DNA from: Bugula neritina
Lineage: Eukaryota > Animalia > Bryozoa
Assembly: GCA_964035545.1 (NCBI GenBank)
Contig: OZ037768.1
Location: 10,448,741 to 10,512,740 of the forward strand
DNA length: 64,000 bases
Direction: 5' to 3'
The notes below the pieces were generated by a model that was given only the letters and a program-made list of their open reading frames with translations, was not told the origin of the DNA and did no database searches. Each line of letters opens with the position of its first letter. The first letter of the stretch is position 1. Positions 3,194 through 31,200 of the stretch are shown here, piece by piece. The translations under genes were made by a program, and so were the position numbers.

Positions 3194-3195
3194 TT

Positions 3196-3206
3196 TGGTG
3201 GAGGTA
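3196..3206 (+). promoter_or_regulatory. Primer binding site, probably tRNA-Ala
   Basis: TGGTGGAGGTA lies 2 nt after the LTR end and is complementary to the ...UACCUCCACCA 3' end typical of tRNA-Ala. Confidence 0.75.
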
Positions 3207-3687
3207 CCATTTCGGTCTCCCCTCTCGTATTGCCTAGCATTTAATTGCTGATCACTGAGGTTAACCACTCGGTTATACTTGGCTTAGGTAGCTATTACTG
3301 CCAAGCTATTGTATTGACGGCTCCCACAAGCTTGAGGACAAGCTATTTTTAACTTAAGGTGGAGTTTAGAGTTCATTGAGTGTATTAAAAATCACTTTGG
3401 AATAACCACAAAAATAGGCCTAAATAATAATTGAACATATTACATACAGAACTGGTCCCACGACACATAAATTAAGGCAATACCTAAATAAGCGCTATAG
3501 AAATACAATAAAAAATTCTAGTGGTTGACCTGGAGTCCCGGTATCTAATACCAAACAATATATTAGTACTGTCAATTTTGAATTACAAGACTCAACTCCC
3601 TTTTTATAAACTTTATTATTACTTGTTGCTGTGTTATCAACACTACTTTTGCTGTTACAGAAATTAGTACCGTTAAACAAAACGAAC

Positions 3688-4800: not shown

Positions 4801-4850
4801 CTCCCAAAGCAAGAAGACCGAAGGCCAAAAGTAGAAGAGGTGGCAAGAAA

Positions 4851-6864: not shown

Positions 6865-7184
6865 CTAGCCACGCCATTGCCGAAAACCGCTCCCCAAGTA
6901 TTGGGAATTCTGGATAGTCGCACCTGTCGAACAACAACAATAAGGGCAGAGGTAAACGGCAAGAGGTGTACCGCGTTAACAGATGCTGGCGCATCCATAA
7001 GTATTGTGAACTGCAATATCGCTGCCAACTTAGGGTTGGCACTACAACCACAAAAGATTAAGGCAAGGGGTGTTACCAACAGCTCCTTAGACATTCTCGG
7101 GAAATCGGACGTAGTGATTACAATAGGCAAAGACACAAGAGTAGAACATTCACTCTTCGTGGCCAATGCAATTACTCACGACGT
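6865..7184 (+). pseudogene. pol: Pol N-terminus: retropepsin-type aspartic protease, truncated
   Basis: AEVNGKRCTALTDAGASISIV active-site motif (D-T/S-G variant). Cut off just before the expected ILG motif. Same frame as env after TGA. Confidence 0.88.
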
Positions 7185-7349
7185 TTACTGAAGTGAACTC
7201 GATATTTTTGAAGTAAAACTTGAAACTTCAAGTTAATACCTTTAAATACCTTTTTAATACCTTTAAATCCACCCCGTTTTCCTTTCTGCTTTGGCCCGCG
7301 GAGCTCTGGGGGCTTCCAGGGATCGTGGGGTTTCTGCCGCTTCTTAGGT

Positions 7350-8156
7350 CCGTGGGCAGCTCGAGCGGCGGTGTCCTCTTGTGCCGCATCTCCAGCAACG
7401 GGTAGCTGGTCTGGGAGTCTCTACTCCTGGTCTCTTGTACTCCATGGGATTGCTGTATGTTATGGTCGCCACCAACTGTCCCAACATAGTCAAAAAGCGG
7501 TCGACCTCTGTCTCCAAAGAAGGGCTAGCAGTAGCGGCAGCTACTCAGACCGGATGGTCTGGTTCTCTAGTGGTTCGCGGGATAGTCTCTATCGCTCTAT
7601 AGAGTTGCTCGGCCCCCAGATATGCCTCGCTTTCCTGGATTGCAGCCTCTTTTGTGGTCACTCCTCTCGCTTGTAACTGGTGGTGGAGGCCCAAATTGTT
7701 GAGGGATTGTACAAAAGCCTCGAACGTATAGCGCCGTCTGTGTGTTTCTGGCAGGTCGCTATACGCGATCCGTGCCAGTCTCTTCACCAGAGTAGCGTGG
7801 TCCGGAAGTGGTGTACATGTTTTGCGGAGCAGTCCCTGTAAACGGGCCTTGGCGTCTGCGACAGGTATGCCAAAACGGGCCCGTAGCGCAGCAATGATCC
7901 CGTCTACGCTAGGTCTCAGCCCGTACGGCTTGGCTTGTTCCGTCAGTGCCATCCGTAGTTTTATCAGGGCTACTCTCGGCGGCCATTTTGTAATGGCTGC
8001 AACTTCATGGAATTCCCGAATAAATTGTTCAACATCTTCAAGGCCCGTGAAGGCGGGAGCCTCTAATGTATATTTATATGCCTCCTCTTCGGCCTCGGGA
8101 GAGTTTACGATAATGTCTCGCTCACCTTCTTCAGTTGAAGCTGTACTTTCGGCCAT
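7350..8156 (-). pseudogene. gag: Gypsy Gag of the second element
   Basis: APAFTGLEDVEQFIREF...ALRARFG capsid motifs. CWRCGTRGHRRSSC (CX2CX4HX4C) lies near 7355-7400, beyond a premature stop. Confidence 0.85.
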
Positions 8157-8198
8157 GATGCTCTAATGTTTTTCCATCGTCTCCAAACAGTAGCTAGG

Positions 8199-8216
8199 AT
8201 CCCACCGCTGCCACCA
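8199..8216 (-). promoter_or_regulatory. Primer binding site, tRNA-Leu
   Basis: 18-nt complement of the tRNA-Leu 3' end AUCCCACCGCUGCCACCA. Confidence 0.9.
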
Positions 8217-8484: not shown

Positions 8485-10128
8485 ATAGCACCGCGCACCA
8501 TAGCGGCAAGCAAACAAGCTAAGCACTACTATTAGCAATAGCGTGCCTAGCCCCAAAATACTTATTATAAGGCCCCCATTTTGGTCCTCCTGAGCTGAGA
8601 ACAGCCCAGCAAAGTCGAATTCAGTAACGTTAGACCCTGTAGCATAGAGTGGCATATAAACTAGGAATGCTTACTCAAAGAGGCAATTTGATTGATATGA
8701 CTATGATGACGACCCTATACTGCTACTGCTTTAAACTAGACAATAGGTCTACTTACTAACCCCGCGTAACAGGCAGATCGGTAGTTGTTTCTAGGATATT
8801 CGGTGCTGTGCTGTACGGTGTAGAGGCTTCCCTGAGGCACTCTAGCACTCTCCCCCACCAGTAGTTACAATGTAACAGACAGGTCCAAAGGGCAAGGGTC
8901 CATTCAAGTCAATATAAGCAATAGCCTAGTGAATACATATATCAACCCCCCTCCCCCCCCTCAGTTAGATACTAACATATAACAGTCTGCTGATACCAAC
9001 AAATCTACCCCAATGCTTACTAACCCCTTGAGGAGTAAATAGAATAACGAATGGCAGGAGCCATTCCCTTTTCTTTTTATTGAGTGAGCAGCTTAACAGC
9101 TAGCAGTGGGTACCAGTGGCCCACTAGATCAATTATATATAATCATAACACAAAACACTGAAGCCGAAATACCCACTAGTTGAAGTTTTCTTTTTTTATA
9201 ATTATTATCTACTTACCCACTTATTTCAATATTAACCAGATAAAGATGGATCTATATGGGTGTATAAGTAACTAAAATAACTGTGAGACAAGTTACAACC
9301 AACAACACCCATCTCATTAAGTCTAATGACCATTATTGCCAAGTACAACTTCACTCTTGTTGATTAGAATTTTCTAATGTCAATACTACTCAACCAGACA
9401 TATTGACATAGTATCTATTAGTATTGACACCGCAACTAGTAGCAACACTGCAATTATTGTGGGTGGGTAATTCAGTCAGCAAACAATCCACTCATTAGTT
9501 TTACTTTAAACTTATAGTCGCAATACTGTACTGAAAATTTATCATTTTTTAAAAAAGAATTAAGTTTCAAAGTCAAATGGGAAATTACACTTAGTTTTGG
9601 TTATATCGTTTCAGGACATTTCCCTTCTAGACTAAAACTTTTACACGATTACAATTTTTAATTACTGAAGTAAACTCGATATTTTTGAAGTAAAACTTGA
9701 AACTTTAAGTTAATACCTTTAAATACCTTTGAAGACATAGAACACTTGGAAACACTAAAGGTTATAGAAGTGCGTCATTTGTTTTACAGTGTGGGCTAAA
9801 GGTTGGTAATTGTGTTAACTTTTTTTTACATGAACTCTCTGGTGTCTCTAATGGTTCTTGGTAAGAAGCTTACCATGGTACACTAGTGAGTTTGCATAAT
9901 TGGATGTTAGTTCACTGCGGGCAGAAGACCTAGTAGTTATTGACATATTTTAACGATCTCGTCTGATTTCGTCGTATGCCATTGCTAAGATTGAATGTTG
10001 TTCTTCTTTCTCCAGGATTTTCATGAGGAGATTGAGTCGGTAAGCCCTGCATCTCTGTTTGAGAGGCTGAAGGCCAAGCTGAGAGCATACCTCGGTTACA
10101 CTTTCTCGTCCCTTTTTTCCAGCAATAA
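8485..10128. repeat. Duplicated block, copy A (LINE 3' end plus about 1.2 kb of flank)
   Basis: Near-identical to 13424-15058. A third short piece lies at 7185-7267. Confidence 0.95.
9710..10128 (-). mobile_element. LINE 3' fragment (ORF2 C-terminus and tail)
   Basis: GRESVTEVCSQLGLQPLKQRCR...LPRTIRD and the AAAGGTATTT tail repeat. Same family as 14655-20650. Confidence 0.85.
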
Positions 10129-10413: not shown

Positions 10414-13355
10414 TAGGGGTAAGTGGGGCAGTCTGGACCGTTTTTTAGTTTTTTACATATTTTGAACACGCTATTGGTGATATGCACAATTTAACGAGAA
10501 AATATGTTAGTTTTATATGTTGTGCTGTCTATGAAACACTTAGATAATTAAACTTCTCTATTTTCTCCTCGTCACAACCAATTAAAAATGTCTTCTCAAA
10601 AGGTCCGAACTGCCCCATAGTAGGGGCAGTTTGGACCAAAAGAAACAATTTTGTTTGAACCACACAGGAATTTTTTTTGTTATTTAAATGTAAGTATATT
10701 GTGCACTCTATGTAACATACCAGCATTAAAAACATGATGTGATTGATATTTTACATATAACATGTCCATATATTCACTAAGCAATAAGCAATGTTGTTCG
10801 GATATAATAATGAACGTAATATAATGCTTCCATTAAGTTCTGTTGACTAGAACTATAGTTTGTTAGGAGTGTTGTAGACGGTAGACCTTCCATCTTGCAT
10901 ATACTGCGATAAATCAATGTTGAATGTGAGCTTTTTACACGTGCGCTCAGTACCACCAGAACTTGTTGGGGTAGGTAACAGAAGCACCAGGTCGCAAATA
11001 TCAACTGTAGCAACATCTTCTTGCACTGGTACAATAAACTGCCTGTTCCCTACGCTCTTATAGAATGATATTACAGCTGTATCTTCGTCACGTTGAATAG
11101 AGTGGACAACCCCAGGAAAACGACGAACATTTTTCTTTCCCCTAAGTGCTGCTAACACGTAGCTTCCAACGTTCAGTTTGTCTGCCGTTATAGCTTCCAC
11201 ATCAGCCACCTCGTCCTCACTCGATGGGTCATCAGTATCATCATCAATTGGTATGGCAAAGTCTTCCTCACTACTGCTGCTATCTTCCTCTCTAGCAATC
11301 TTTCTCTTTTTCAATATTGATGGTTTTTTTGTTTTTCTAGCAATCCGTTCCATTTCCTCTTTCTTAAGTTAAATCTTTGTTGGAGTGTTGGTCAGAATAG
11401 TTGTTTTTCTCTTTCTGTTGCATTGTTTGGTTTTTCTGGGTCCAGCTTTAGCAAATGGTCGTACCTGTTCCGGTGTGATAGCACTTGGGTTGTTGGTATC
11501 CGCAGAATCACTAGATGGAGATGTCTGGCCATCAGAAGTAGTAGTTTGCTTGATAGAATTGTCAGAAACAGAGGCTACTACACCATTACATTCGACTTCA
11601 TCATGGTTACTTGGTTGGGGGCGATCAGTAACATATGATGAGAGAAAATCATCATCACCAAAAGCATTGCGATCTATTGGGCAAATACCAGGCTTTCGGA
11701 ATCCGCTTAAGATGTTGCTGGGTGTCATGGCTCTAGGATAAGCTAAGCTTAGCAAAGATGCCATATTGTAAATTGATAATGTTTGGCCAGGGTTACTCAA
11801 ATGCCACGATGTACAAGCTTCGTTAAAATATCGCTTCAACGGGCCATATACTGCAATGTCCAGTGGCTGCAGTTTATGGCTGCAATGTGGTGGGAATGTT
11901 AACATCACCACTCCACTCTCCTTGGCCAAATCTATGGCATCTATGCTTGTGTGGCTATCATGATTGTCCATCAACAGTAAGACAGGCCTATCTTTAGATG
12001 CTCTAGTATGCAGTTTGAAATGACGAAGCCACTCTATAAACAGTTCTCTTGATATCCATCCTGATTGACAAGCAGCACCTATTGAACCTACTGGAGCATC
12101 ATTAAGCATGAACTCTCGATATTTTACTCGAGGAAAGATCAACATTGGGGGAATACTGTTACCACCAGCACTAACAGCGACAACCATTGTGATCAAAACT
12201 CCTCGCTCAGCTGATGTTACATGACCAACTTGTCGGCACTTTCTATCTGCAATGACCTTTGGTGGTTTGTGTACAGTTGTAAGGCCAGTTTCATCCATAT
12301 TGTAGATTTCTGAAGCAGCAAACTTATATCTTTCCATTACCCATTGAAGATTGTCAAAAAACTGGTTAACATTCGCTCTGTTAAAGGCGGTACCTCTACT
12401 GAGGCTGTTAGGCTCTGGTTTTCTTAAACTTAGATCTGTGTGTCGTTTCATAAAGCCACTGATCCAATCTTTACCTGCACATTGTTCATAATCCCATGAT
12501 TTAGGATATGTAGCACCTACTTTTTTAGCATACTCCCATGCAAACTCCCTGGTCTTTTTCTTAGAAAGCCCGTGGTTCTGCTTTGCTGCCAATTTTAAAT
12601 AGTCCTCCAACATCCTCTCTTGCTCAGCGGTAAAGACTGCACGGCTTGAAGTAGATTTGCTATATGACATGTTAGATCCCTTAACCTTAGCCTCATCAAC
12701 ATAGCGTCTGAGTGTAGTACGTGAGACATTAGAATTTCTTGCTACTTGACGCAGAGATTCTCCAGCTAAAACCAATTCTACAGCTTCCTTCATTGCCATC
12801 TCAGAGACTTTTACCCCCTGTTTCTTTTTCTTGTAACTCCTAACCATGATGACGATGTTTAATCTAAAACAGTAAACAGAAAACTCTTAAATTGTAAAGC
12901 TCTACTCCATATCCCTTAGTGGTAATCATGCATTCTGTGGGCGGGGCACTTTGGACAGCGGTCCAAAGTGCCCCTATGTGTATGGGCCAAACTGCCCCAC
13001 CTGTCAAAATTTATAATTTTCTTATATATCTCAAAACTTGATTTAGCAAGATATGTTAGCAATGCATGATGATTAACTATGGTCATAGATGTTTGCATGC
13101 ACCAGATATGAATAAATTGTACAACACACATGACTTCAAAAATCTCCATTGAAAATAGTTTATCAAATTTTATTTATAAATATCTGCTTACCTCTTCTTC
13201 TAGAATAGCAGCATGTGGACAAAAACAATATGGCAGACTTTTTACATCCTCTTCTTGGTTTTCCTAGAAGAAAGACAACTCAAAACAAATTAGATTTAGC
13301 TGCAGATTGGGTGGTCCAAACTGCCCCTGTGTCCAAACTGCCCCACTTACCCCTA
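10414..13355 (-). mobile_element. Complete pogo/Fot1-like (IS630-Tc1-mariner) DNA transposon
   Basis: TIRs TAGGGGTAAGTGGGGCAGT(C/T)TGGAC at both ends, flanking TA duplication, and internal copies of GGGGCAGTTTGGAC near 10602-10638, 12942-12998 and 13313. Confidence 0.95.
10853..12847 (-). pseudogene. pogo-family DD35D transposase (about 664 codons, one in-frame stop)
   Basis: N-terminal psq and CENP-B-type HTH domains, NMDETG, LLMDNHDSH and LQPLD with 35 residues between the last two Asp. ORFs 11369..12847 and 10853..11353 share a frame, separated by TAA at 11369-11371. Confidence 0.93.
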
Positions 13356-13399: not shown

Positions 13400-13823
13400 A
13401 TTTGGGGTGGTTCTATACTCTATATAGCGCCGCGCACCATAGCGGCAAGCAAACAAGCTAAGCACTACTATTAGCAATTGCGTGCCTATTCCCAAAATAC
13501 TTATTATAAGAACCCCATCTTGGTCCTCCTGAGCTGAAAACAGCCCAGCAGAATCGAATTCAGTAACGTTCGACCCTGTAGCATAGAGTGGCATATAAAC
13601 TAGTAATGCTTACTCAAGGAGGCAATTTGATTGATATGACTATGATGACGACCCTATACTGCTACTGCTTTGAACTAGACGATAAGTCCAATTACTAACC
13701 CCACGTGACGGGCAGATCAGTGGTAGTTTCCTCCAATTCCACGGGTGTACTGTAAAGCGTGGAGGCACTGCTAAAGCATTCTAAAACCCTCCCTCGCCAG
13801 CAATTGCAGTGCAATGGGCAGAT
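13400..13823 (-). other. Cryptic spliced gene or pseudogene for a small Cys-rich single-pass membrane protein (second copy at 8485-8884)
   Basis: Exon 13700-13823 ICPLHCNCWRGRVLEC...TTTDLPVTW between CAG and GTTAGT. A phase-compatible TM exon starts at 13575. Differences between the copies are strongly biased to synonymous sites. No start codon found. Confidence 0.5.
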
Positions 13824-15058
13824 CTGAAGGGCAAGGATCCATTCAAGTCATTATAAGCGATAGCCTAGTAAATGCATATATCAACCCCCCTCCCTAGTTA
13901 GATACTAACATATAACAGTCTGCTGATACCAACAAATCTACCCCAATGCTTACTAACCCCTTGAGGAGTAAATAGAATAACGAATGGCAGGAACCATTCC
14001 CTTTTCTTTTTATTGAGTGAGCAGCTTAACAGCTAACAGTGGGTACCAGTGACCCACTAGATCAATTATATATAATCATAACACAAAACACTGTAGCCGA
14101 AATACCCACTAGTTGAAGTTTTCTTTTTTTATAATTATTATTTATTTACCCACTTATTTCAATATTAACCATATAAAGATGGGTCTATATGGGTGTATAA
14201 GTAACTAAAATAACTGCGAGACAAGTTACAAGCTATACTTACATCAACCAACAACACCCATCATTAAGTCTAATGACTATTATTACCAAGTACAACTTCA
14301 CTCTTGTTGATTAGAATTTTCTAATGTCAATACTACTCAACCAGACATATTGACATAGTATCTATTAGTATTGACACCGCAACTAGTAGCAACACTGCAA
14401 TTATTGTGGGTGGGTAATTCAGTCAGCAAACAATCCACTCATTGGTTTTACTTTAAACTTATAGTTACAATACTGTACTGATAATTTATCATTTTTAAAA
14501 AAAAATTAAATCTCAAAGTCAAATGGGAAATTACACTTAGTTTTGGTTATATCGTTTCAGGACATTTCCCTTCTAGACTAAAACTTTTACGCGATTACAA
14601 TTTTCAATTACTGAAGTAAACTCGATTTTTTTGAAGTAAAACTTGAAACTTAAAGTTAATACCTTTAAATACCTTTGAAGACATAGAACACTTGGAAACA
14701 CTAAAGGTTATAGAAGTGCCTTATTTGTTTTACAGTGTGGACTGAAGGTTGGTAATTGTGTTGACTTTTTTTTTGTATGAACTCTCTGGTGTCTCTAATG
14801 GTTCTTGGTACACTTGTGAATTTGCATAGATGGATGTTAGTTCACCGCGGGCAGAAGACCTAGTGGTTATTGACATATTTTAGCGATCTCAACTGATTTA
14901 GTCTTATGCCATTGCTAAGATTGAATGTTGTTCTTCTTTCTCCAGGATTTTCATGAGGAGATTGAGTCGGTGAGCCCTGCATCTCTGTTTGAGAGGCTGA
15001 AGGCCAAGCTGAGAGCATACCTCGGTGACACTTTCTCATCCCTTTATTCTAGCAATAA
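13424..15058. repeat. Duplicated block, copy B
   Basis: Near-identical to 8485-10128. Confidence 0.95.
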
Positions 15059-16632
15059 ACCTCACTGCCCTGTGCTGTAACATTTCCAGAGACTCGATGT
15101 CTTTAGCTAATGTTGGATCCCATACGGTATCTGCATACTCGAGGATGGGGCGGCCCAGACTAGTGTAGACCAGTAACGTACCTTCTCTGTGGCCTTATAT
15201 AGAACATGTTAAATTGCTCCCAGAATTTTCAAGTGTAATATGCTGATCAAATTTAAAGTTTGACTGCATTACAACCCTCAATTATGTTGAGTCTACCCAA
15301 TCTATCTTTGCTTCACCTTGCTTGTACAGAGGTTTGTTATTTTGATTGCCAAACGCTATGATTTTGCATTTACCTTCATTGAAAGGCATTTACCAATCAA
15401 CTGACCATTTGTGTATGGCATTGATGTTTTCCTGGAATGTTGCAGCGTCTTCTTTTGTGTCAACAGCCTGATACAGTAGCGTATCATCAGCATAAAGGCT
15501 TACACTGCAGTTTAATTTTAGTGGGAGATCATTAATATATATTAGAAATAGTGTTACACCTAGGACTGAACCTTGTGGAATCCCTGAGGTTACTTCTAAT
15601 TCTGAGGAAAATTTTCTGTCAATAACTACTTTTTGTTTTCTATGTGTCAAAAAATTTTGAATCCAGTTTACCTGTTGTGGATGTATTTCTGGTATTAGTC
15701 TTAATTTTTGCATTAGTAGACGATGAGGCACTTTGTCAAAAGCCTTTTTGAAATCAAGTACCATAGCATATGTGGTTTTTATTGTTTCCTTAGTTTTTGC
15801 TAGTTCATGGTATATGGCACAGAGTTGTGTTTCACAAAACCTGCCTCTTCTGAATCCGTGTTGTCTGTTGTAGAGAAAATCATGTATGGTTCAAATAATG
15901 AAGTACAATGTGTTCCATCATTTTGCATGGGATACTAGTTAGTGATATGGGGCGATAATTACTTGCTACCACCTTATCTCCACCTTTGTGCACTGAGGTG
16001 ACATACGCAAGCTTCCACTGGGCGGGTAACTTTTCTGAGTCTATTGAGGCTTGAAATACCTGTTTTAGGCACACAGCTGACATCATGACATCCAAAAGTA
16101 AATCTGGTTTGCGAATTCCATCAGGTCCTGGAGATTTTCCATTTGATAAACTGTTTATCAATTTAATGAGACCTTCAGTAGTTATCTCTGTAGGTGCTGC
16201 CGCAGTTTTTCTAGTTGAAGAGTGTTTGAAAATTGCTGATCTTTACAGAATTGATTCTGAAAATATTTGTTGAGGATGTTTGCACACTCTCGCTTCTTCA
16301 GTGATTTTTCTTTGTCAACTATTCAATTTTATACTGAAATCGCTATTTGACCTAATATTTTTAGGTGCTTGTAAAAAGGTTTAGAGTTACCTTTTTGAAG
16401 TGGTTTGCACAACTTTTCTATTAAATGTTCTCTTTTTTCTGTTGACATCCAGTTTTACTAGTTCTTCTTTCTGCATGGTATTTATGTATAAAATATGTGT
16501 CGCCAATCTCTTTATACTTTTTCCAGGTTCTTCTACTTTTTTGTATTAGTTTTTTCGTTTTCCTATTCATCCATTCTGGCCAGCTGTAGTTTTTTGGATA
16601 TAGCAACTTTGTGGGGATATTGTTGTATTTTT

Positions 16633-19085
16633 TGTGGGTTGAATAGAACTAGTGCCTGAACATGCTCTTTGTTAGAGAGAACAAGATGTGTTGTACAGTT
16701 GAAGCAATCTTTATTGAGTCGAATAATATAATAATTAAGATCCTCTGCCATTGAGCTTCAGTAGTAGACTGAACTACACTGGAGCTCGCTGGTTTTTATA
16801 TACAGCAAGAGATAGGGTTTTTCCTTTGTTGCCGAATCGGAGGTCCAAAACGACGACCTTCGGCATTTCGGAAGTCCGAAATGCCGATCTCGGGCAACAG
16901 GAAACAAGCACATGCAAAGATCCACCACACACACCTCCCATCGGAAAGTACACTTTCCGATAAGAGGGAATGTGACACCAGTAACAAAAAGAAAAAAAAT
17001 GACCAATGCAGGGGACAACACAAGAAGTTTTACACAAAAAATGGTATGACAGGTAAAAATAAAAAAAAATAACAGCATGCGACACATAAACTACAATATC
17101 ATGCAAAATAATAAAAACAAAAGAACATGCTCCCTCCACCAGTGTCAACATAAAACAGTCTTATTGCTGGTCTGTGTCGCCTGCCCGCTCCAGACGGCTC
17201 ACGCGCCGTCTTAGCTCCCCCAACTCCTCCTCATATCGCCTCAGGCGCAGGGACCGGACCTCCTCCTCCAGCTGTATGGATGCAGTGTGGCCGGTGGCGC
17301 TATGCCGGGGTCGTCTTCTTCCTCCCGTCGCCGAGGGTCGCTGACTCAGGCCCGGAGATCCGGACCTGCCGCCTTCGACCCGTGCCAGCACGACCCGAAG
17401 TGGCTGGGTGGCCGCTGGTTGAGGTGTCACGACGGGCTCCTCTTCTACCTCCCTGATTGGGCGGCATGCGGGAAACCCCTGGGCGAAGGTAGCCCGTTTG
17501 CGGGGGTCCGCGACATGGGGCAGCACCAGGTCCCGGAATTCGGGGAAACTGGCCTGATCCACCGCAAACGTGTGGCCCGTGTGGCAGCGCGAGATGCGCT
17601 GATGTCTCAGCACGTAATCGCGCTGATAAGAAAATTCGCCATACGGGCAAAACACGTTAATGTAGTGCTGCGGGGCGTGAACCCGCAGCCGCCGTGTGGA
17701 GGAAAACTTCCTCCGACACTACTGGCAGATGCGGTTGCCCGGCTCGCCGCATGTCTGGCCAATTTTCAGGTTGGTTTCCCGGGAAACCCAGTACTGGCGG
17801 GCAACCAAAGCCCGAGGCAAAGCCAGTATCTGGGAGCTATCTTCCTTCTCTGTGGGCTCCCCACCGAGCAGTATGCCCTGCTCCTCCCCGGCTGAGAGCT
17901 GGAGCTCAACCGGGTTAGACCCAGGGCCACTTGCGGTGGTGGGAGGCACCCCGGTCGGTGGAGCGGCGCCCTGCTGGCTGCTGGGAGTCGGAACAGGGGC
18001 CGGTGGAGGGGGGGAGTTGGTATAACTCGACCTGACCTCATCTACATCCATACAATTCCCTACAACAGATAGGAGAGGCTGTGACAAGCCGATCTCTCTA
18101 TCGCCGAATTTCGGCATACACTTATACGAGACTAAGCTACAAACTGGGGGCCGAGATGAGTCAGAGAGTGTGACTGAGCCCACGTCTTGGTCCAACAAGA
18201 AGTCGTGGACAGGGTCACCTTCCAGATCCATCTCGGTCTCGGGTTCTAATAAGTCAGATTCTAAAGAATCTAACAAACTCCAATCAACATTAGCTCGGTT
18301 GGACTCCGTTTGTGGAGGTTCCAACCTTAAAGGAATACCTGTAGTGACGTTAGTAGTTTCAATGAGTGTAGCATCCATGTCCGAGTTGGAGTTTGGTTGT
18401 GATTTAAAATTATAATTCAAATTTTGTTCGTTAATTTTCAAATTGAGTGCTGCTGGCGCGGTGGCTGTAGTAACAATGGCCGAGCCTCGTGTTTCAGAAT
18501 TATTACCTGCAACGGCGATGGCCACGTGATCCGTGGGAATTCCCATTAAATATTGAAATGACAACTCAGGCAATCGCGGCCCCCCGAAATTCGGTCTGAG
18601 TTTTCCTTCTGTCGGTGGAATTCTCTGGAGTATTGGAGGAAATTGCCACCCAAGGCAGGGTAGTCTGTAGAATTAGGGGGACTAGGATCACGAGGGGATA
18701 ACTCCAGGCGTCCTCCTGCATAATCTGCCAAGTATCTAGGAGGTTTTCTGTCCCTCTGGCTCCTTTCAAGCCGTACGGGTTCTGTCAGGGCTTGCGATTC
18801 TTCGACTACTGCGGTGGGGGAGGGGGGTCCTGTCATCACTGGCGCTATGGGCGGGGACGTCTTCCTCCAGTTGGGGTGGTACCCTCGGGGCCTGTGATTG
18901 CCGTAATTGTCGCCCCTGCCTTTGTTGCTGTTCTAGTTGCTCCAGTAGGGCGGCCTATTCACGTGCTGCCTCTCTCTGAATGACAACTTTCACCTCTCTG
19001 GGTTGGGTGACTCTCCCTCGATGGTTGGGCTGGCGATTGGGCTCTAAGAGGGGTGGAGCCTGACCAAAATATTGCCATTTTGGGC
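16633..19085 (-). mobile_element. Third Gypsy element, 3' fragment (integrase tail, accessory ORF, PPT, 3' LTR) inserted in the LINE
   Basis: GC-rich block with the RLERSQRDRKPPRYLADY integrase-end motif. LTR 16633-16929 (TGTGG...CCACA) with TATATAAAA and AATAAA. G-rich tract at 16930-16940. Confidence 0.82.
17161..18573 (-). pseudogene. Accessory ORF: acidic and Pro-rich region, C2H2 zinc finger(s) and C-terminal coiled coil
   Basis: ORFs 17719..18573 and 17161..17655 are the same frame split by one TAG. The joined sequence gives CQxCRRKFSSTRRLRVHAPQH, a canonical C2H2 finger. Confidence 0.75.
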
Positions 19086-21176
19086 TCTGGCCAGTCCTTG
19101 TGTAAAGTGATTCCACATAGCATTAGGGTTTGTCATTTTAGCCAGCTGGTTAGTTACTTTTTGCATCAACTCATGGTATTTGACTATATTGACATGTTTG
19201 TATAGTTTAATTTCTTTTGGCAGTGATAAAAGCTCTTTTGGTTTATGTTGGTTTAGTTGAGAAGTTACTAAATAATGATCACTTATTTCTGGGGATATTA
19301 CGTCAATGTTTTTCACTAGTTTAGGAGAATTAGTGCATATTAGATCAAGGGTGTTACCAAAAACATGGGTTGGCAATTTTACTAGTTGCTGAAGGTTATT
19401 TTCTTTTAGGAAAGTCAGGAAGTCAAGGTGAATTTTTTGTGTTTGGCGTTTTGTTTAAGGCAAGCTGTTTGCTATTCTGTTTCTGGAAAGTTCATGTCGC
19501 CTAGAAAATAGTTTTGTAATCAGGGTGTTTTTCCATGACTTCTTCATTAGCAGCTCTTAGTTGATCTATGTTTTGGAGGTATACGTAAGGTCTGTAGTAA
19601 CAGCAGATTAAAATATTTGGCTCTATTTTAACGAAGACGAGTTCTTTAGTAGTGGTCAGGTTTATTTGTCTGGGGTTAAGATCACTATCTAGTGCAACAA
19701 GCACTCCACCACCTCTATGATTTCGATCTTTTCTGAATACAATTTTTTTGAGTTAGGGATTATACCTTTGCTCTGTATTGAGCAATCAAGATGGGTCTCA
19801 GTGAGACATATGATGTTAAAATCAGCACTTGAAGATTGTAGATCTGCTGTTTTTCCTTTAGCTGACCTGATGCTAGATAAGAGCATTGTTAAAAAACCGT
19901 TTTCTTTGGGGGTTTGTGCTGGTTTCATCACTTTCCATTCCCCCGATGGCTGTTTTTGTTCAATGTGTAGGTTTCTGATACGGTATTTTTTCTCAGCATC
20001 AGATTGTTAGTACTCTCTTATCTGTTCTCTTAGAGCCCATTCCTGGCTTCTTACTTCTTGACACGTGTCCAACTTACAGAAAATATTTTTCTGCTTCAAG
20101 CCTGAGTTTACTCGCTTCACGAACTCCCACTTTTCAGTCTCATTCTCAAATGTGAGCTTTATTGGTCTGGTATCTCGTGTTATCTTTTGTTCTTTTCCGT
20201 CTCTTTCCAGTTTTTTCTTGCAGCCTAGCCTGAAAGCCACAAGCGGGGACCTCAATTTCTTGAAACACTTTTGTTTCAAAAAGTTGTTCACCTGGTCTAT
20301 GGCTTGAGTCCCTTCTTCTTCGGCTATGCCATATAAAATTGCATTCAGTTTTCGTGATTCTGTTTCATTCATTTGGTGTTGCTTTTGAATCAATTTTTCT
20401 GCATTTTCATTAGATTCAGCTGCAATTTTGTATATGATTTTTGTTTTCTTCTCGGTGTTTGGAGTTTTCTGTCGTAATCGCTTTTAGTTCCAGGATTTGG
20501 TCATTGCTTGATTTTAAAGCAGTCGCATATGTCTGTTGCATTCTAGTTATTGATCTTTCAATCACATCTAACTTGTTCATGGTGGTCTTGTGTTGGAAGT
20601 TTAAATTTTCGCGGCCGCCATGTTGAACCGGAAGCCGTAAGATTGAACGCTACTACTACCAGTACTACCGAAACTACGTACATATTTACATCGTAGACAT
20701 ACCAACTGAACCCACACTATGATACAAATGTAGAAATAATTAGTACTATCCAACTTATCATACTGGAAGACATACTGAAAACTGAAGCTTATAAAAGTAT
20801 TAAATTAAAATTGTGTCAACACAAAAACGTGGCTTATACTTAGAGTTATAGTTATGATGGAGAATCGCGCCAATTTACCGGTAATTACACAATGACACAA
20901 CCCTGCATTCTTGCCACCCGAACATCATCAATATTAATTAGATCCGCTGCAACAAATACTCGGAACAGCTTAACATTGACACCATTTCCTCATCCTAGTT
21001 AGTAATAGTCCCAGTAAGTAATAAGTAGAACGCTCTGATCAACACCAATTCACTCAGACGAACCACTTACTGACTCACCCCCATATCCCAATTTCGTAAG
21101 TAGAACCTTATTATAATCTCAACCTACATTATGATCACATCAGACACATAGCAGGAGCTATGCTTTTTTTTTCGCT

Positions 21177-21184: not shown

Positions 21185-22234
21185 TGTTGTGGAATTATGG
21201 ACTTTGGATTTATTCAATTCTCATTCCACATTCTCCTCTCCAGACCCCCAGCTCTACCCCACATAAATTAACTTTCTATTGGTATGCAGACTAGAGATAA
21301 TTAATGTCATAACAATAGCCAAGCTGTCTCCCACTGTCTGTAACATTTACTAATTTCGTTATAATTGCAATTACACTTTTGCTTTGAAGTCAGCTCTGAC
21401 TCGTCAAACATCCTGATCCCTGCAGTTACGTGGCCCTACCCTTATATGGAGATGCAGCCACCCTTGTAAATGCAGCAACTTATCCTGAGCAAGCTGACAT
21501 GGATCTAACCGGCAAGAAGTCTCTTGCTACACCCAACAGCTATCTGAAGTCACTTCTCTGTGAGACCCCGCTTCAGGTAGACGTAAGCCAGAACGAGAGG
21601 AGTTATCTACAATCTACAAGGTAATTACCAGGGTTGGGGTAATTGTAATCTGTAATTGTTTGTAATTAATTACATTTTTTCAAGTAATTGAATGTAATTT
21701 GTAATTGACGTATAAAAATGTAATTGTAATTAATTACATTGCTAATGTAATTGAATTTTACAATAACTTTATAATTACATAACAATTACTTCAAATTTTT
21801 AAATCTTAGAAAGTTCATATTTTACCTGCCTTGCCTACTGTTCAATAAAAAGTTCAGAATAATTTAATGTCGTATTTATCACCCTATTCGTTACTGTTGA
21901 GAACAAAGAAGGTTTTCAGTTGTCAAAATTGCCCCTGGTAGTTGGACCCCAGAAGTGAGATTATATAACTTTTATTTGTCTCTTGTGAGAACAAAAGTAC
22001 TTGTAATTAATCACATTACCATGTAATTGTAATTAATTACATTTGTTTCAACTGTAATTGTAATTCGCAAATTATCATGTAATTGTAATTAATTACAGTC
22101 ATATGTAATTGACCCCAACCCTGGTAATTACCATAAATTATATGCATATAATACTGTTATAGTAAATCACTAAGGCATAGCCATATTAGTAACAGCTAAG
22201 TTGTAGCAAGATACCACAAGATCCTGTTACAACA
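21185..22234 (+). repeat. 3' LTR of the env-bearing Gypsy element (contains a MITE)
   Basis: Direct repeat of 2563-3193 once 21629-22123 and one TSD copy are removed. Confidence 0.9.
21629..22123. mobile_element. Non-autonomous hAT element (MITE)
   Basis: 12-bp TIR CAGGGTTGGGGT and 8-bp TSD GTAATTAC (21621-21628, 22124-22131). The empty site is in the 5' LTR near 3076. Subterminal GTAATT repeats. Confidence 0.93.
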
Positions 22235-24989
22235 ACTGTAAAAACTTTACACTACTCTACAGATGTTAAAGACTCTAAAGTACAAATATTCTCCATGTTT
22301 ATGCTGCTTATCTTGATGCCTTGGTGACTAATATTTCTAATATTTTATTTTGTATTACAACACAGGGAATAGCTATAAAGTTAAAATGTTCCGACAAATG
22401 ATTGCTGAAAAGATAAAAAGGGCATCGGTTGGTAATGGCCTGGACCAACTTCAGTAGCGATTAGTGATTACAGTACGAGCTTGTCATGCTGTGTTTGCAA
22501 GAACATGTTGGACATCCTGTTAGCAAGGTAAATCACCATGGGATCTAGTCCTGCTAGCAAATATTTAACTGAAGCTGCGTAAAAATTGTATACACTAGTG
22601 CACAGCGGAAATATCCTCCTAGACTCATGGCATTGAAGTTCCTAAGATTATTTAAATTGTTATACATACCTTAATATTTTATTCACAGTAAAGTAATTTG
22701 AATATATATGTAGATAATTATTTTAATAAAATTTTAGAATTATTCATTTTTAGGACAATGCAGGCTATCTTCCTATAGATGACCCTGTTAAAGAAAAAGT
22801 GCAGCAGGTAGTCACAGATCTGCACATAACAGAAACCCTCTCATATACTTGTTATCATACGCAGATGTATTTTTTATATTTTCATGCGTTGATGTTATTT
22901 GGAATACAAGCTACTACTCATCCATCATTTTTATAACTTTTGTATCATAAAAGACAAGCAGCCAACACTGGGATAGTTACAAATTTTATTCAGAGATATG
23001 TTTAAATACCAAGTATATTGAATGATCAGTAATTAAATTTGACAGAACTTTATTGTAAGTCTTGCCATAACAATAAAAATAAATATAAACAGAAATGGTC
23101 ACTTTTAATATAAGAAAGGAATAAAAACATATTGATATATATTATTGAAAACTATTCATAATGTATATACTAATAACAATATTAATGCTATACACTAACA
23201 TTATGAGTAATATAGTTTAACAGCAGCTGTGTTTTGATTTACCAATAATTTAACTTTGCTTCTAAAAGTAAATAGATATTTACACAAATTCTTGAACCAA
23301 AATTTTAAATGTTGGTGTGGTTCAATGTGTGAGTTAAAGCTAACGGTTAAAGAACATAATAATTATGTTGATCATTACATTATTACATCGTATGTTCTTT
23401 GAGTTGGAGCGCACCGTGCACAATGACAATCTCACACATCAACAATAACACGTGCGCTAAACAGAAAATATTCACCAAACTAGATGTAGCGCCAGATTAC
23501 TGCATATAGAACTAATCATTACCATTACAATTGAGTTCTTCTATAAGCAGCTCAAAGTTGCGTGTGATTGAGTGCAGTAGTCTAGGCTTCTCGAGTTTAT
23601 AGTTGAGGATCTCAGTGGTAACGCCTCCAGCTTAAAACTTGAGACCTTCAACTACTGCACTCAATTGTTTCTAACTGGGGGCTGTTTATAAATAGCTTCA
23701 ATTAAAAGTGCGAAGTCAGTGTCACGACAATGTTATACTCATGTGCAAGCTTCTGCGACATATTTGAGAGTTATCCTTTCTTTAAAATTATGGCCAGAGG
23801 AGGGTTAATTAACTCATTAGCATTCCGATTTAATAATCCCTGGTTTGATATATAAATTGTTCTATTTCAACAGTTGAAGTCAAACTAATTGTACTTGGCA
23901 ACAAAATTTAATCAATTTTCTTCAATTTGTTTTTACAACGATGGACTAGCTTCTATACATTATTGATTGTGTGTGTGTGCACGTGTGTGTATAAAAATAT
24001 TTGACAAACTACATTTATGCAGCATTAAAACCACTGAATCAAAAGTTATATTTCAGTGATCAAAACATTTACGAGCCATCAGCTACAAATTCAGGATTGT
24101 ACAGTGGAGGAGGAAAGTTAGCTGTACCTACTCACTTTTCTCACAGTTTTTCTTTTGACTTATAAAAGATGCACATGAAGAATATAACCTTCACTTTATT
24201 GACAAAATAATTGTATTATGTTATTTTTTGTTTGTATTGATGTTAAAGTTCTTTAAGCAATAACTGTGGTTAATGAATGTAAATTCAACCAGATTATTTA
24301 TACTTTTATGCTACAGCTTTATAATTATATGGAAATACAGACTGTTGACAATAAGCAATAATTTCAGCTATCGTTTAGCATCTGTGCTGTTGCAAGTATT
24401 ATAGCTATAACCAGCCTAGAATGTAGAGAATCCAAAGGCGCTGGCCACTTAGAACTTGATTAGCTGGTGAGTTACATTTGCATAATATATAACAAAGTAC
24501 AATTAAATATGGTATGTAGCAATTGTAAATAACTATAACTTATAAGTTATAACTTATTGGGCATAGCATCCTAATTTATAACACTATTCTATATAACTTA
24601 CTAGGCTTAGCTTCACCACACAACTTGTTACCCGGGAACGTAAATTATTGTATGAGAAGACAACTTCAAAATTTGTATAACGAAAGTAGGTTATTTAAGT
24701 ATCTCAACCTCTCAATTTAAAGTTCATCACTCATCGCCAATTAGGCCGTAAACTATATATTAGTTTTCCGTCATTTCTACGTCTTATAACATGAAAATTG
24801 AAGTAAAACTAGTAACTAAACCATATTTTATTTTATTAATTACATTTCTAAATTTTTACATGTCAGTAAAAGTATTCCGCTGTTCGGATAACCATTTAAA
24901 TGTCTCTGCCATTCTTGCATATCAAGTTGCGCTTGACCTTACTCTAACTTATATTTATCCTTTTTTTCAACTACAACCGTAAATTCAAC

Positions 24990-25223
24990 TCGTATTCAGT
25001 ATAACTATAAGTATAAGTATTCTATTGCTAATAGTAATACTAATAGTAATAGTAATAGTAAATGTAATACTTATACTAATACTAATAGTAATAGTAATAC
25101 TGTATTATTATAAATATATCAACTAGTACATTTTCTATTACTATTACTATTAGTACAACATTAATTATGTTACGCTAAGTATTAGTATGACTCTAACTCT
25201 AAGTATTACTGTATTACTACTAG

Positions 25224-25270
<47 letters not shown>

Positions 25271-26030
25271 GTAGTACTACTACTACTACTAATACTACTA
25301 CTACTACTACTAGTCTTAGGTTTATTATTAATATTATATTCAGTTTCACTTATTTATAATAATTATTTATTTATAAGCGTAATAAATGAATGTTACAATG
25401 ATTAACTATAACTATAACCTGTCTCAGTAACTGAGAGTGACTATCAGTATCACTATCACTATGAGTATGAAGATAAGTATCAGTATGTCACTATGAGTAT
25501 GATTATGACTATGAGTATCAGTATGAGTATAATTATAATTTAAACTAATACTAATAGTAATAGTAATACATTATGAGTATACATTTAATTTTATACTATA
25601 ACTATAAGTATAACATTAAATATACTGAGTACTAACACTCTAAACGAAATTCTAAGTCTAGGCATTACTATTACTAACTATTAGTATTAGTATTACTATT
25701 ACTATTAGCATAAGTAATACTAATAGTATAACTATAAGTTTTACTTTTAGTTATTACTATAAGTAGTATAAGATTAGTATAACTATAAGTATAAGTATAA
25801 CTCCCTATAACTAATACTATAAGTATAACTATAAAAGTAAGAGTAAAACTGAAGGTAGTAGGAAGCCTAAGAGTAAGAGTAACTCAAACTTAAACTGTAA
25901 GTATTACTATTACTAATACTATTACTATTAGAATTACTATTAGTATTACTATTACTATTAGTATTAATAATAGTTATACTAAAAGTAATACTAATAGTTC
26001 TATTAGTACTGATTATAAATATAAGTATAA
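24990..26030. repeat. AT-rich simple-repeat tract including an (ACT)n microsatellite near 25215-25312
   Basis: Runs of TAATAG, TACTAT, ATAACT, ATGAGT and ACT. Confidence 0.9.
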
Positions 26031-26041
26031 CCATCGTAATT

Positions 26042-26592
26042 GGGTTTCGTTCCAGATAGACGCTTCCCAGTTAGACGCTTCCTCTTTAAATGCTTCCCAC
26101 CTAGATGCTTCCCATTTGGACGCTATATATTTATTTTGGTACAGTTTTTTATAGCAATATACCTATACATGCCTATATAACTGTTGTATTGATTGCTAAA
26201 CATGAAATAATAGTCAATATAAATAATCTGGAAAAATATTCCAATTTTCACAGATTTGTGTGGAACAAAAAATCAGCAATACATTAATAATAAACATTAT
26301 CTATAATGAATACTTATTTATGAAATATTTTTTCAAACAACAAGAAGTATAGAAAATGCAAAATTATAAGATAATGCAGATCAAAGGAATTTATTTCAAA
26401 ATTCAAGGAAATCTAATAATGCCTAAATATACATATATTTCAGTAATATTAAATAAATTGCTCATAAAATACATATATTGTTCCAAAATAAATAAACAGC
26501 GTCTAAATGGGAATCGTTCACGTGGGAAGTGTCTGAGTGGGAAATTTAGCCTAGCGTCTAACTGGGAATCTAATGTAATCTAATGACACCCC
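26042..26592. mobile_element. Decayed foldback/MITE-like element
   Basis: Arrays of TTCCCANNTAGACGC on the left are mirrored by GCGTCTANNTGGGAA on the right, around an AT-rich core. No clear TSD. Confidence 0.6.
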
Positions 26593-28216: not shown

Positions 28217-31200
28217 ATGGGAAAATCTGACAGTCCTGGACTAATATACCGAAACATTGTTGTTATAATTAGCATATTATTTATTGTAAGTTTATTTAAA
28301 TTAATAATTTCATGCATTTTTCGTGAATTAAGGCTCAAATAAAACTGATATCTAAGTTGTTACTACCTGTGGAATACCATTATTCTTCTATTGGTTGAAC
28401 TGATGATATTTTTCTTGTTTTTTTCAGCTGTTTTCGATTGCCATTCTTTCTGCTGGAATATGGTTCTTCATTGAAAGAAACTACTTATCCTCTGTGACCA
28501 GGAGTGACCTTTTTAATGCAGGGTCAATCATCCTCTTCGTATGCGGTTGTGTTATATTCATTGTATCTTTCATTGGATGCTTTGGCGCTTATAGAGGAAT
28601 AAGACGGATGTTACTAGCGGTAAGAGTTAATTTCACTTTGTAAATTCTGCTGCTTTTATTGCTTCAATTTTTCATGTGTATGTTATAGGAAATCCTCACT
28701 GATTGTTGGTATTAATTTATATTTCAGTATTTTGGAATCAATTTGGTGGTTGTTATTCTGGCAGTGATTGCTGGCTGTGTTGCTGCTGCCTTCCACGGTG
28801 AGGTAAGACAACTCTATTCTGCTAGTCAATGGGGAAACTTTAAATTTGTGCAAAATGAATCAACAATAAACATGGATGTTCAGGCCGTTTGAAATACTGT
28901 AGTTTATTTGTGGTTCCTTTACAGATTGGGAGTATTGTGAAGTCTAACATGAATGAGACGCTAATAACTCGTTACAGGAATAACACACATAATACAACTC
29001 TCAACAGAATTGTAACGCAAGCTTGGGACAGAATGCAAGTTCGAGTGAGTTGGGAGTTGTCACATTTGTGAATCTCTAAAGGTCCGTACTTTGTGAAATG
29101 AATCTCAGATGGGTGGTTACTGTGTAGCCTGTGATCGTGACTTTGTGTTTTTGCAGTTGAATTGCTGTGCTGTTGAAGATGAGGGCTGGGAGGTTTACCA
29201 ACAATCTTCTTGGTACCAATACAAGTTACACAATAATTACGGTGAGAATTACTCATATAAAAGCCGCATGATTGGAGTGAAAATATAATATACTTGTTGT
29301 ATGCAGGCTTTACCTTACACTGTCACTGGCTTCACTAGTATGTATAACACATTAGTATGTTGCTTTACTTTTGTGTTTTAAAAGTTTTATAGACTGAAGT
29401 ATTATTTCAGAAATAAGCAAAATAGAGCTGGTTCCAGAAAGCTGTTGCAGACGTGCTACGTATGACTGGGAGAGAATTATCAATCAACGGATATGCCAAA
29501 CGACGCAAGGAGGCCCTCCCAAGACCTCTCAGGGATCTCCTAATTATTTCCTGAACTATGATGTAAGCATTTCATAGCACAATGCTTAGTAATGAAACTC
29601 GCATAAGTTTAGAGTCACTATCCCTGTGAGAATCCCTGGTGGAAAGGGTTTTTTAAAGCCTGCTAAGGATTTTTCTAATGTGGCACAAGAGCAATTATGG
29701 CTGAGTGCTCTTCCTAACATGTTCACCATCAGTATTAAAGGATTGCTCTATCTTAGTTTATTACAATCACATTATAATTATGAACTATAATCTAATGTGT
29801 ATGCAAACAATTGTGACTTTGCAAAGGGATATGTGCCTAGAAAACAGCTTTTCAAAATTCCAATTTTGAGGGAGGTAAAATTTTCAGCCATAAAAAAGAA
29901 TAGCCTATTACGTGACGTGTGAACGCCAGTAACTATGCTGCACGTGCTAACTATAACGCTAGTATTCAAGGTTGCTGAGCACAACATCAACCAATAACGC
30001 TCAAGCAGTTACAGTGCGCTATATAGGTCAGCTTTGGTGCGCCCGTAACATTGCACAATCTGACCTAGTTTAGATCGATCGCAGGCATTCATCCTAAAGA
30101 ATGCATGTTTTTGCAATGCTTTTTTCTAATGTTTACAAGCAAAATATGGCCTAATGTTATCACATACATGTTATTTAACATGTCAAAAAACTATAGATTG
30201 AGATAATTCACATTTGCACTTCTATAAACATACAAATTACGAGCTGAAAGATCACATCTCACAGTCATATTTCTATAGTTATTCATTTGTATAGTCACGT
30301 GACCAGCAGGAATGCTGGCGCTGTTACGTCACATTTCCCAGCTCATTTCAAAATCGGCGTTTTGGCTGTTACCAATCTACACCCTCAACTTCAACTAACT
30401 TTTTCTACCTTTGGTCAAATGCTTTTTGTCAATGCATGCTTAGAAAAACACAATATTATGTGTGTTTGACCTAAATGGCCATTTATTAGACAAGATAGAG
30501 CAATCCTTTAAGACTGACCTGTCTTCACTAGGCCAGCGCAATGTTTGACAATACTGTGGTGTAATGTAATGTATTTAGTCATAAAGTTGTTACTATATTG
30601 ATGTATGTTATTTATTTATATTACATGTTTCTGTACATTGCTTTCCATAATTCGTATATCGTTGTGTATGTACAAGTAACAATATGTTTTTCTTTGTAGG
30701 GATGTTATAATGCTGCAAAAAAAGCTTTGAGCGAATTAATTTGGTTTGTGTTTGGATTTGGCTTTGTTTTGGCAGCCCTAATTGTAAGTATTACTAATTT
30801 TCAAATTCTGACCAAAGTTTTTAGATACAGGCAGTATAATTATAGAAATTTAAATTATCTAAAGTAAAATACTGCATCAGTAAGTTATAAATGTTGGATG
30901 TAAAATTAAGCTGTCAATATGTTCTTGTCAGTAGCACTTTGAATGGCCAATACAAGGATTTAAAGTAGGTTGGGGTGAGATTGAAGAGGGTAAGTACTAA
31001 GTTTTGGTGTGTTCAAATTCATTCTAAAACAAAAAATAATTTTATGCAGTTGCAGATCATGGAGTTTGGTCATTGTGTAGTTGTAGAGCAGTAAATAAAC
31101 TTTTACATGCCACATATTTTATGTATTCAACTCACTTCTCTATTTCTAGAGTAAACTTGAACTCTTACCAGCTCATATTCGGTTATGTGTACTTTTCAAT

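Follow-up and report, generated by a model that had tools for sequence, protein, structure and literature searches.

Sequences added behind the integrase decide where elements with long terminal repeats (LTRs) land or how they are expressed, and the chromodomain is the well-studied case. Complex retroviruses encode transactivators, such as Tas of the foamy viruses and Tax of the deltaretroviruses, in separate frames that are read from spliced messenger RNAs (mRNAs), and these proteins have no C2H2 zinc fingers. In Cer1, a Gypsy-family element of Caenorhabditis, a region in frame with the polyprotein is expressed as a separate regulator, CERV (PMC10309623). Bdelloid elements carry varied third open reading frames (ORFs) (PMC5408684). 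The stretch described here, hereafter the window, comprises 64,000 nucleotides (nt) of contig OZ037768.1 of the bryozoan Bugula neritina. It contains a dead 3' fragment of a likely Gypsy element, in which two C2H2 fingers and a coiled coil appear to form the tail of Pol, and this module perhaps acted as a regulator on the LTR of the element itself. All coordinates are in window numbering, and the fragment lies entirely on the minus strand.

The frame that carries the fingers had been picked out in an initial annotation of the letters, and it is genuine. It runs from 18573 to 17161 and has 471 codons with a single in-frame TAG at 17721-17719, which falls between two cysteines of finger 1. All of the peptides that had been quoted from it (the acidic tract, the Pro-rich linker, finger 1, a degenerate finger 2 and the coiled coil) are located in the frame. 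The original form proposed for the degenerate finger 2 matches the relatives, and the window finger 2 is without one zinc ligand that they keep. When the stop is read as X, ten database proteins (numbered here in the style P0001) match at E values of 1.6e-190 to 4.2e-47 with 39-74% identity, which is far beyond chance. By alignment, the ten closest relatives are 39-76% identical to the window frame. The window copy itself is dead and functionless, and what is of interest is the family.

The following observations show how the family is conserved. A profile (A2) was built from eight of the ten closest relatives and searched against 1.84 billion representatives. It matches 273 clusters at E ≤ 1e-3; the number falls to 106 at a threshold of 1e-10 and to 39 at 1e-30. 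In pairwise comparisons among the window frame and its ten closest relatives, identity averages 67% in the finger core, as against 46% in the helix and 41% and 35% in the first and second linkers. Three zinc ligands are invariant in 70 relatives, and four further Cys/His positions are kept in at least 90% of them. In a tree of the 70 cores, eight close relatives form one clade with 99/99 support. Far from being absent or unconserved elsewhere, the frame is thus conserved among other copies as well as diverged relatives, and its zinc ligands hardly vary.

The start at 18573 that had been given to the frame is not its true start. A tblastn search with the relatives extends it upstream, as frame -3 and then as frame -2, so that the window can be divided as follows:

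18823..19068, minus strand, frame -2: Pol tail that follows the integrase SH3 domain in relatives, with a TAG at 18957-18955 (tblastn with P0161, P0163, P0164, P0167 and P0170)
18525..18833, minus strand, frame -3: next tail segment, with the basic motif R-x-R-K-P-P-x-Y-L-x-D-Y at 18764-18720 (tblastn)
17164..18582, minus strand, frame -2: linker, finger core, second linker and coiled coil, with the TAG at 17721-17719 (tblastn with P0001, P0002, P0005 and P0006)
18285-18223, minus strand: acidic tract, read from the frame translation
18166..18285, minus strand: acidic-hydrophobic motifs (D-W-S-L-L-D... and D-F-L-L-D-Q-D-V-G), the second with 41-55% identity in P0004, P0006 and P0012
18012-17935, minus strand: Pro-rich linker, read from the frame translation
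17161..17163, minus strand: TAA that ends the Pol tail

The match of P0001 to the third of these segments has 75% identity over 407 columns. The succession of frames -2, -3 and -2 along the window is the pattern expected of one ancestral ORF with two compensating shifts. The simplest reading is a single ancestral frame of about 635 codons, which ran from the rear of the SH3 domain to the TAA at 17163-17161 and is now broken by two TAGs and two compensating frameshifts. The ancestral order of its parts is the post-integrase segment, a variable Gln/Pro-rich spacer, the basic motif, an acidic Pro/Ser-rich linker, the two-finger C2H2 core, the second linker and a 40-residue helix.

The relatives connect the front of this frame with integrase. 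Used as a query with its TAG read as X, the window frame from 19065 to 18769 finds 11 proteins at E values of 3.1e-19 to 1.2e-10. The SH3_Tf2-1 domain is matched in four of them (P0164, P0168, P0169 and P0170; E 3.7e-6 to 5.4e-4), together with weak matches to MLVIN_C in P0164, P0169 and P0170 and to Integrase_p58_C in P0169 and P0170. P0170 starts with the last part of the integrase core, and a G-P-Y motif is visible in P0164 and P0169. The atlas neighbours are integrase C-terminal clusters, with scores of 0.90-0.96. A search of the Protein Data Bank (PDB) sequences by phmmer with P0170 gives nothing, and scans of metagenome and viral contigs with the family alignment return pattern matches and no relative.

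P0164 (366 residues) is a single frame in which the SH3 domain is followed by the counterpart of 19068-18823, a spacer rich in Gln and Pro, the basic motif and the start of the frame first annotated. In P0161, P0162 and P0167, too, a single frame connects the SH3 domain (or its last strands) with the tail and the basic motif. In P0163, which starts directly behind that domain, the tail is again a single frame. Overlap with these SH3-side tail proteins is found for P0144 and for P0005, and P0005 extends through both fingers. The basic motif lies near the N-termini of P0004 and P0008, and P0144, P0161 and P0164 read its segment in frame with both sides. In close relatives the module is thus read in one frame with the integrase C-terminus, and the separate gene in the env position that had been proposed is not found. 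As far as can be judged from these overlaps, the module is very probably an in-frame C-terminal extension of Pol behind integrase, at least in this subfamily.

The tail does not occur throughout the group of elements that share this integrase end. Several contigs depart from the window sequence near 18992-18995, each with a consistent continuation of its own. P0166 and P0144 are tail variants that have the post-integrase segment and the linker and no finger core, and they end in a different Cys-containing, helix-like stretch; they represent either a deletion form or a second tail type. The divergence of the contigs and the existence of these two proteins imply that the tail marks one subfamily of a larger group. 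In X2, the summed contig depth at 19031-19064, the last 35 nt on the integrase side, reaches about 89,600 in one bin and 78,400 in another, compared with 4,200-7,000 on the fingers; summed contig depths are not copy numbers. The only named members of the family are three proteins of the bryozoan Watersipora subatra, each called 'uncharacterized protein'; two are isoforms of one gene model and the third belongs to another. Two copies of the finger core occur in one protein in P0016/P0159, which are Watersipora subatra gene-model isoforms, and in P0040.

The divergence near 18992-18995 of most contigs that share the integrase end, the resulting restriction to a subfamily, the variants P0166 and P0144 without the finger core and the presence of the module in two Watersipora subatra NCBI gene models would all be compatible with a passenger, that is, a piece of a host transcription-factor gene captured at the pol-LTR junction of one subfamily and carried without use. 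However, the element-linked copies retain the zinc ligands, the core and the helix at 41-76% identity, where a neutral passenger would have decayed, and P0004 and P0008 also retain the basic tail motif. A passenger is therefore improbable. The other copies extend upstream consistently and an integrase domain is joined to the tail in the relatives, which led to the rejection of a further idea, a stand-alone retrocopy of a host zinc-finger mRNA.

The finger core and the helix occupy the following positions:

17512..17826, minus strand: conserved core with an N-terminal helix, finger 1 (17727-17665), an atypical finger 2 (17649-17581) and two helices
17188..17271, minus strand: C-terminal coiled-coil helix, which corresponds to the AlphaFold2 helix 187-225 of P0011 (39 residues; predicted local distance difference test, pLDDT, about 96)

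Finger 1 fits the classical C2H2 pattern C-x2-C-x12-H-x3-H; it is interrupted by the stop in the window and intact in the relatives. In the AlphaFold2 model of P0011, which is based on 70 sequences, residues 1-120 have a pLDDT above 90 and form a helix, finger 1 (a hairpin plus a helix), finger 2 and two helices. A profile search of the PDB aligns both fingers to tandem C2H2 pairs (HIC2, Aart and SALL4 among them), with a best E value of 3.7e-8. Pfam gives nothing for the three tail frames of the window and only weak C2H2 matches for 19 longer relatives; in P0040, zf-C2H2_4 scores 27.7 bits against a cut-off of 27. The atlas neighbours of P0004 are only generic C2H2 clusters, with scores under 0.9. 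Foldseek finds no match at E ≤ 0.001 among the PDB and viral structures, and VIA-wide matches only the long helix, with Z ≤ 4.5.

The C-terminal helix is predicted to pair with itself as a parallel dimer, which agrees with the dimer first proposed for this frame. The predicted pair is in register, with a score of 0.43 against 0.02 for the best of three controls, a contact agreement between runs of 100% and a partner pLDDT of 71. Its contacts run from residue i to residue i with a spacing of 3-4. The mark for pairing was reached by 21 of 30 proteins solved as same-chain pairs and by none of 23 single chains (17/29 and 0/30 for eukaryotes), and passing it may reflect likeness of the helix to solved coiled coils. 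The linker before the fingers contains 15-18% acidic residues, is rich in Pro and Ser and has 64% disorder-promoting residues, a composition that is only a hint of disorder. The AlphaFold2 model of the 553-residue P0004 (eight sequences) has a mean pLDDT of 38.4 and is not usable to call the linker disordered. By eye, similar acidic-hydrophobic motifs recur in distant members of the family.

A module of this kind at the end of Pol could serve as an integration tether. The fingers and the coil would stay attached to integrase by a long flexible linker and dock the intasome on specific DNA sites, as the chromodomain of chromoviruses does, only by direct recognition of DNA. Four relatives read the module in one frame with the integrase C-terminus and with no stop, the fingers resemble DNA-binding tandem C2H2 pairs, and a dimerising helix would suit a multimeric intasome. 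There are also precedents: a chromodomain at the integrase C-terminus serves targeting (PMC3605345), and the coiled-coil extension beyond the integrase of Gypsy_Ds1 has been proposed to mediate integrase interactions (PMC7998251). Against a tether, the fingers lie about 440 residues behind the SH3 domain, and the acidic-hydrophobic motifs, for which a tether would have no use, retain 41-55% identity in the three relatives named above. The module is also found in proteins of 400-650 residues without an integrase-like part, and the sole insertion seen here is aberrant (truncated, with a 6-bp repeat). The tether is ranked second and is less likely than not. It also seems rather unlikely that a marine-invertebrate Gypsy lineage uses a natural integrase-zinc-finger fusion, whose dimeric two-finger C2H2 module reads DNA sites, to steer its landing.

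The sequence behind the TAA bears on the other possible role. An outward-facing promoter at the 3' end is a property of a 3' LTR, and the roughly 500 nt behind the stop resemble an LTR in these features:

17130..17140, minus strand: putative polypurine tract, a purine-rich stretch directly before the candidate LTR
16624..17127, minus strand: candidate 3' LTR of 504 nt, from TG (17127-17126) to CA (16625-16624), as judged from one copy
16934..16967, unstranded: second dyad, some 180 nt upstream of the Inr-like site; its 16-nt arms are 88% complementary, and 2 nt lie between them
16860..16887, unstranded: perfect dyad, some 100 nt upstream of the Inr-like site, in which 2 nt separate arms of 13 nt
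16802-16793, minus strand: TATA box TATATAAAA, 32 nt before the Inr-like site
16772-16767, minus strand: initiator-like (Inr-like) TCAGTC
16715-16710, minus strand: AATAAA

Folded as DNA, the perfect dyad has z = -6.2 and the second dyad z = -6.0, and none of 200 shuffles is as good for either. In other copies, the stretch 16719-16909 has variable runs of TTCGG-like units around the perfect dyad. Its summed contig depth, like that of 19031-19064, is 10 to 100 times that of the remaining insert. Scans for Rfam families and transfer RNAs (tRNAs) in 16400-19200 and 16400-17300 find nothing, and the idea of a tRNA-derived short interspersed nuclear element in the 3' region is unsupported.

The acidic motif, the DNA-binding fingers and the dimerising helix together would have the layout of a transcription factor. 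Because of this layout and the two strong dyads in the candidate U3 (the unique 3' region of the LTR), a regulator of the element's own LTR is favoured. Such a module is predicted to bind DNA as a parallel dimer. The dimer would act on the LTR of the element, where the candidate U3 has its two dyads upstream of the TATA/Inr pair. The module might be freed from Pol by the protease of the element, or it might be made from a spliced mRNA, as Cer1 makes CERV. An element-encoded dimeric regulator, first proposed as a transactivator or anti-silencing factor, is thus tentatively preferred, and it is placed only slightly ahead of the integrase tether.

The dyads and the helix can also be read in terms of RNA. 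The fingers and the helix might bind the RNA of the element for its export, packaging or translational control, in the manner of CERV. Part of the coding sequence of CERV is an env-position region that is in frame with the polyprotein; the protein has a Cys-rich loop and a helix like a zipper, and the export of genomic RNA depends on it (PMC10309623). At the 3' end of the transcript, each U3 dyad would give a stable hairpin (folded with DNA parameters). The module has, however, no likeness in sequence or fold to CERV or to RNA-binding domains: Pfam, Foldseek (PDB and viral structures) and VIA-wide give only C2H2 fingers and a single helix. This makes an RNA-handling accessory protein quite unlikely.

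Several points weigh against the regulator and the Pol tail from which it would derive. The in-frame fusion with integrase is the arrangement of known targeting domains and, by this analogy, favours the tether. Binding of DNA by the module is a prediction only, and the acidic motifs are called activation-like by eye. The depth of 16719-16909 is 20-fold above that of its neighbour, so the perfect dyad could be part of an unrelated, high-copy repeat; it could also be a site at which a host factor binds or an RNA hairpin. The LTR is read from a single copy, with no second copy in the window. The SH3_Tf2-1 matches score 20.5-27.4 bits, below the Pfam cut-off of 30 bits. No single sequence contains both an integrase domain and the fingers, and the link between them is made by overlapping partial proteins from different contigs and by the frame pattern of the window. 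None of the best 150 of the 273 profile matches is longer than 650 residues, and a search with P0004 for longer proteins found none. All 11 tail relatives are partial proteins of 178-366 residues that begin inside or behind integrase, and most sources of the relatives are short contigs. Neither reverse transcriptase nor RNase H is seen in any relative.

The absence of reverse transcriptase from the relatives would also be expected of a DNA transposon of the Ginger1 type. The transposase of Ginger1 is a Gypsy-like integrase, complete with the GPY/F module and followed by C-terminal additions, and the termini of Ginger1 resemble LTR ends (PMC2836005). Yet the 5' truncation is typical of copies derived from complementary DNA (cDNA), and the 3' end has an outward TATA/Inr pair, an AATAAA and a purine tract in the U3-R-U5 (unique 3', repeat, unique 5') layout. 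Ginger families are described as small and of low copy number (PMC2836005), whereas the integrase end here has a very high summed contig depth. The flanking repeat is CAATAT, and not CCGG or CCGT, in a copy that has lost the 5' end of its parent. A Ginger1-type parent is accordingly a poor candidate. The SH3_Tf2-1 likeness, the G-P-Y motif and the atlas neighbours together point to a retroviral-type integrase of the Gypsy kind, and the 5' truncation suggests an origin from cDNA. The parent element was probably a Gypsy-type LTR retrotransposon.

The state of the copy in the window can be described in some detail:

16624..19068, minus strand: whole insert of 2445 nt, the 3' end of a 5'-truncated retroelement (post-integrase Pol tail and candidate 3' LTR), nested in a long interspersed nuclear element (LINE)
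19069..19074, minus strand: CAATAT, left copy of a 6-bp repeat resembling a target-site duplication, with the empty site placed by eye
16617..16622, minus strand: CAATAT, right copy of the 6-bp repeat
19069..20483, minus strand: 5' part of the host LINE (ORF1 and, by position, an endonuclease-like region), with ORFs, no Pfam match and contigs that bridge the insert
13424..16623, minus strand: 3' part of the host LINE, which contains its reverse transcriptase and whose 3' part is repeated at 8485-10128

The GC content is 52.8% in the insert and 56.7% in its coding part, against 35.6-37.0% in the flanks of the LINE. The reverse transcriptase of the LINE lies at 16242-15390 (RVT_1, E 8.1e-23 for 15390-15890 in Pfam). 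Contigs of paralogous LINEs in three runs of the same organism skip the insert, with joints at 16207->19067, 16486->19078, 16623->19110 and 16576->19069. In the third of these, 33 contig letters between 16623 and 19110 are read as the homologue of 19108-19076, which places the empty site at CAATAT. A TCAGGC repeat at 19063/16659 was dropped as the junction, because the empty site in the paralogous LINE contigs gives CAATAT. The ends of the insert share no direct or inverted repeat, as the best local scores of 20 and 17 compare with a maximum of 25 in 100 shuffles. There is no second copy of the insert or of its ends in the window, which, for a truncated copy, is silent on LTR pairing in the family.

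The claim that this is a Gypsy element with integrase upstream thus stands only in part. The frame belongs to an integrase-bearing, Gypsy-like family, and the copy in the window is a 5'-truncated, 2.45-kb fragment in a LINE, with no second LTR. A Pfam scan of the ORFs found no integrase upstream of the frame and, in the whole window, no LTR-type integrase, reverse transcriptase or RNase H. It covered 118 of the 139 stop-to-stop ORFs of at least 70 residues, and the 21 omitted are alternative-frame or antisense ORFs that overlap scanned ones. Gag, protease, reverse transcriptase, integrase and the 5' LTR are all missing upstream in this copy. The contigs of other copies continue upstream of 19065 consistently (X1: 3 contigs, agreement 0.96; X2: 5 contigs, 0.91; X3: 8 contigs, 0.92). 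As the other copies have one consistent continuation upstream, the window copy is truncated and not complete. The 6-bp flanking repeat does not come from normal integration, because the 5' junction lies inside pol. A one-ended or otherwise aberrant insertion of cDNA and a later deletion are both possible routes into the LINE.

The rest of the window is animal DNA with several other elements. The sole retroviral-type Pfam match is an aspartic protease at 6865-7188 on the opposite strand (Asp_protease_2, E 4.8e-6). It belongs to a partly duplicated, retroelement-like block at 1-8200 on the plus strand, in which 1-715 resembles 4022-4693 and 1173-1472 resembles 4689-4988 with 89-96% identity. The block has a gag-like end with one zinc knuckle and then a long Cys-rich frame (942-1976; 4700-6864), which has a start like a signal peptide and a hydrophobic stretch near its end and is env-like by eye. 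There is no other Pfam match in the block, and it shares no sequence with the insert. The gag/protease element at 1-8.2 kb was considered as the missing 5' half of the insert and was rejected on account of its opposite strand and the lack of shared sequence.

An open pogo/Tc5-like transposase of 505 residues (DDE_1, E 2.1e-20, with helix-turn-helix domains) lies on the minus strand at 10856-12886, with an acidic frame of 171 residues right behind it. This pair is located between 1.65-kb direct repeats at 8485-10128 and 13424-15058, of which six segments are 92-96% identical and one 78%. The repeats look like the 3' parts of two LINE copies. A 470-nt repeat at 2566-3039 and 21185-21583, with 86-89% identity, has one copy upstream of the ORF1 of the LINE and may be a LINE 5' region. 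AT-rich arrays with 3- and 6-nt units of the ACT/AGT type and 27-31% GC occupy 24700-26100 and 43800-44300. Host exons encode a tetraspanin (28407-28640, plus strand), a helicase of the MTR4/SKIV2L2 type (34060-40488, minus strand), a nuclear hormone receptor with a zf-C4 and a ligand-binding domain (51895-58740, plus strand) and CNOT1 (63405-63629, minus strand).

The tail can be compared with several described systems, and the titles and openings of abstracts listed from the literature contain no description of C2H2 fingers and a coiled coil behind the integrase of an LTR retrotransposon, which is weak evidence, as Repbase-type entries and subscription journals lie outside that search. In chromoviruses, an extra module that reads nucleic acid or chromatin is likewise found in frame behind the GPY/F (SH3) domain of integrase. 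Here, however, Pfam finds no chromodomain in the window frames or the scanned relatives, and the module consists of two C2H2 fingers and a coiled coil about 440 residues behind the SH3 domain. A conserved, dimerising C2H2 pair in this place would be a different solution, the direct reading of DNA by the element's own Pol product. Gypsy_Ds1, from the ostracod Darwinula stevensoni, is another case in which pol is atypically extended in frame past integrase and has a coiled coil there. The extension of Gypsy_Ds1 has 250 residues and, in the account given there, no detectable homologues and no zinc fingers (PMC7998251), whereas the present one has about 635 codons, conserved fingers and 273 clusters.

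In Ginger1, a Gypsy-like integrase with GPY/F is combined with extra C-terminal domains in a single protein, as appears to be the case in the present family. Ginger1 differs in that it adds protease domains and has terminal inverted repeats and CCGG/CCGT duplications (PMC2836005), in contrast to the LTR-like 3' features and the 5' truncation seen here. With CERV of Cer1, the module shares an origin in the env-position region of a Gypsy-family element, a polyprotein frame, a zipper-like helix and a Cys-rich part, which in CERV is a loop resembling a metal site. There is no sequence likeness between the two, and CERV, whose mRNA is spliced from five exons, acts in the export of RNA (PMC10309623).

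The likeness to Tas and Tax is that of an element-encoded factor proposed to act on its own LTR, and the difference is that the module here is in one frame with integrase. If the module activates the LTR, self-regulation in the style of complex retroviruses extends to the Gypsy elements of invertebrates. Its wide occurrence, in 273 clusters and two bryozoan gene models, prompts the question of whether host transcription factors and retroelements have exchanged sequence. If the module steers integration, it would be a natural model for site-directed integrases and a counterpart of the engineered zinc-finger-guided integrases. The engineered fusions of integrases or transposases also join a DNA-binding domain by a linker to the integrating enzyme (PMC3597653, PMC1874657); they are laboratory constructs, whereas the tail described here would be a natural case.

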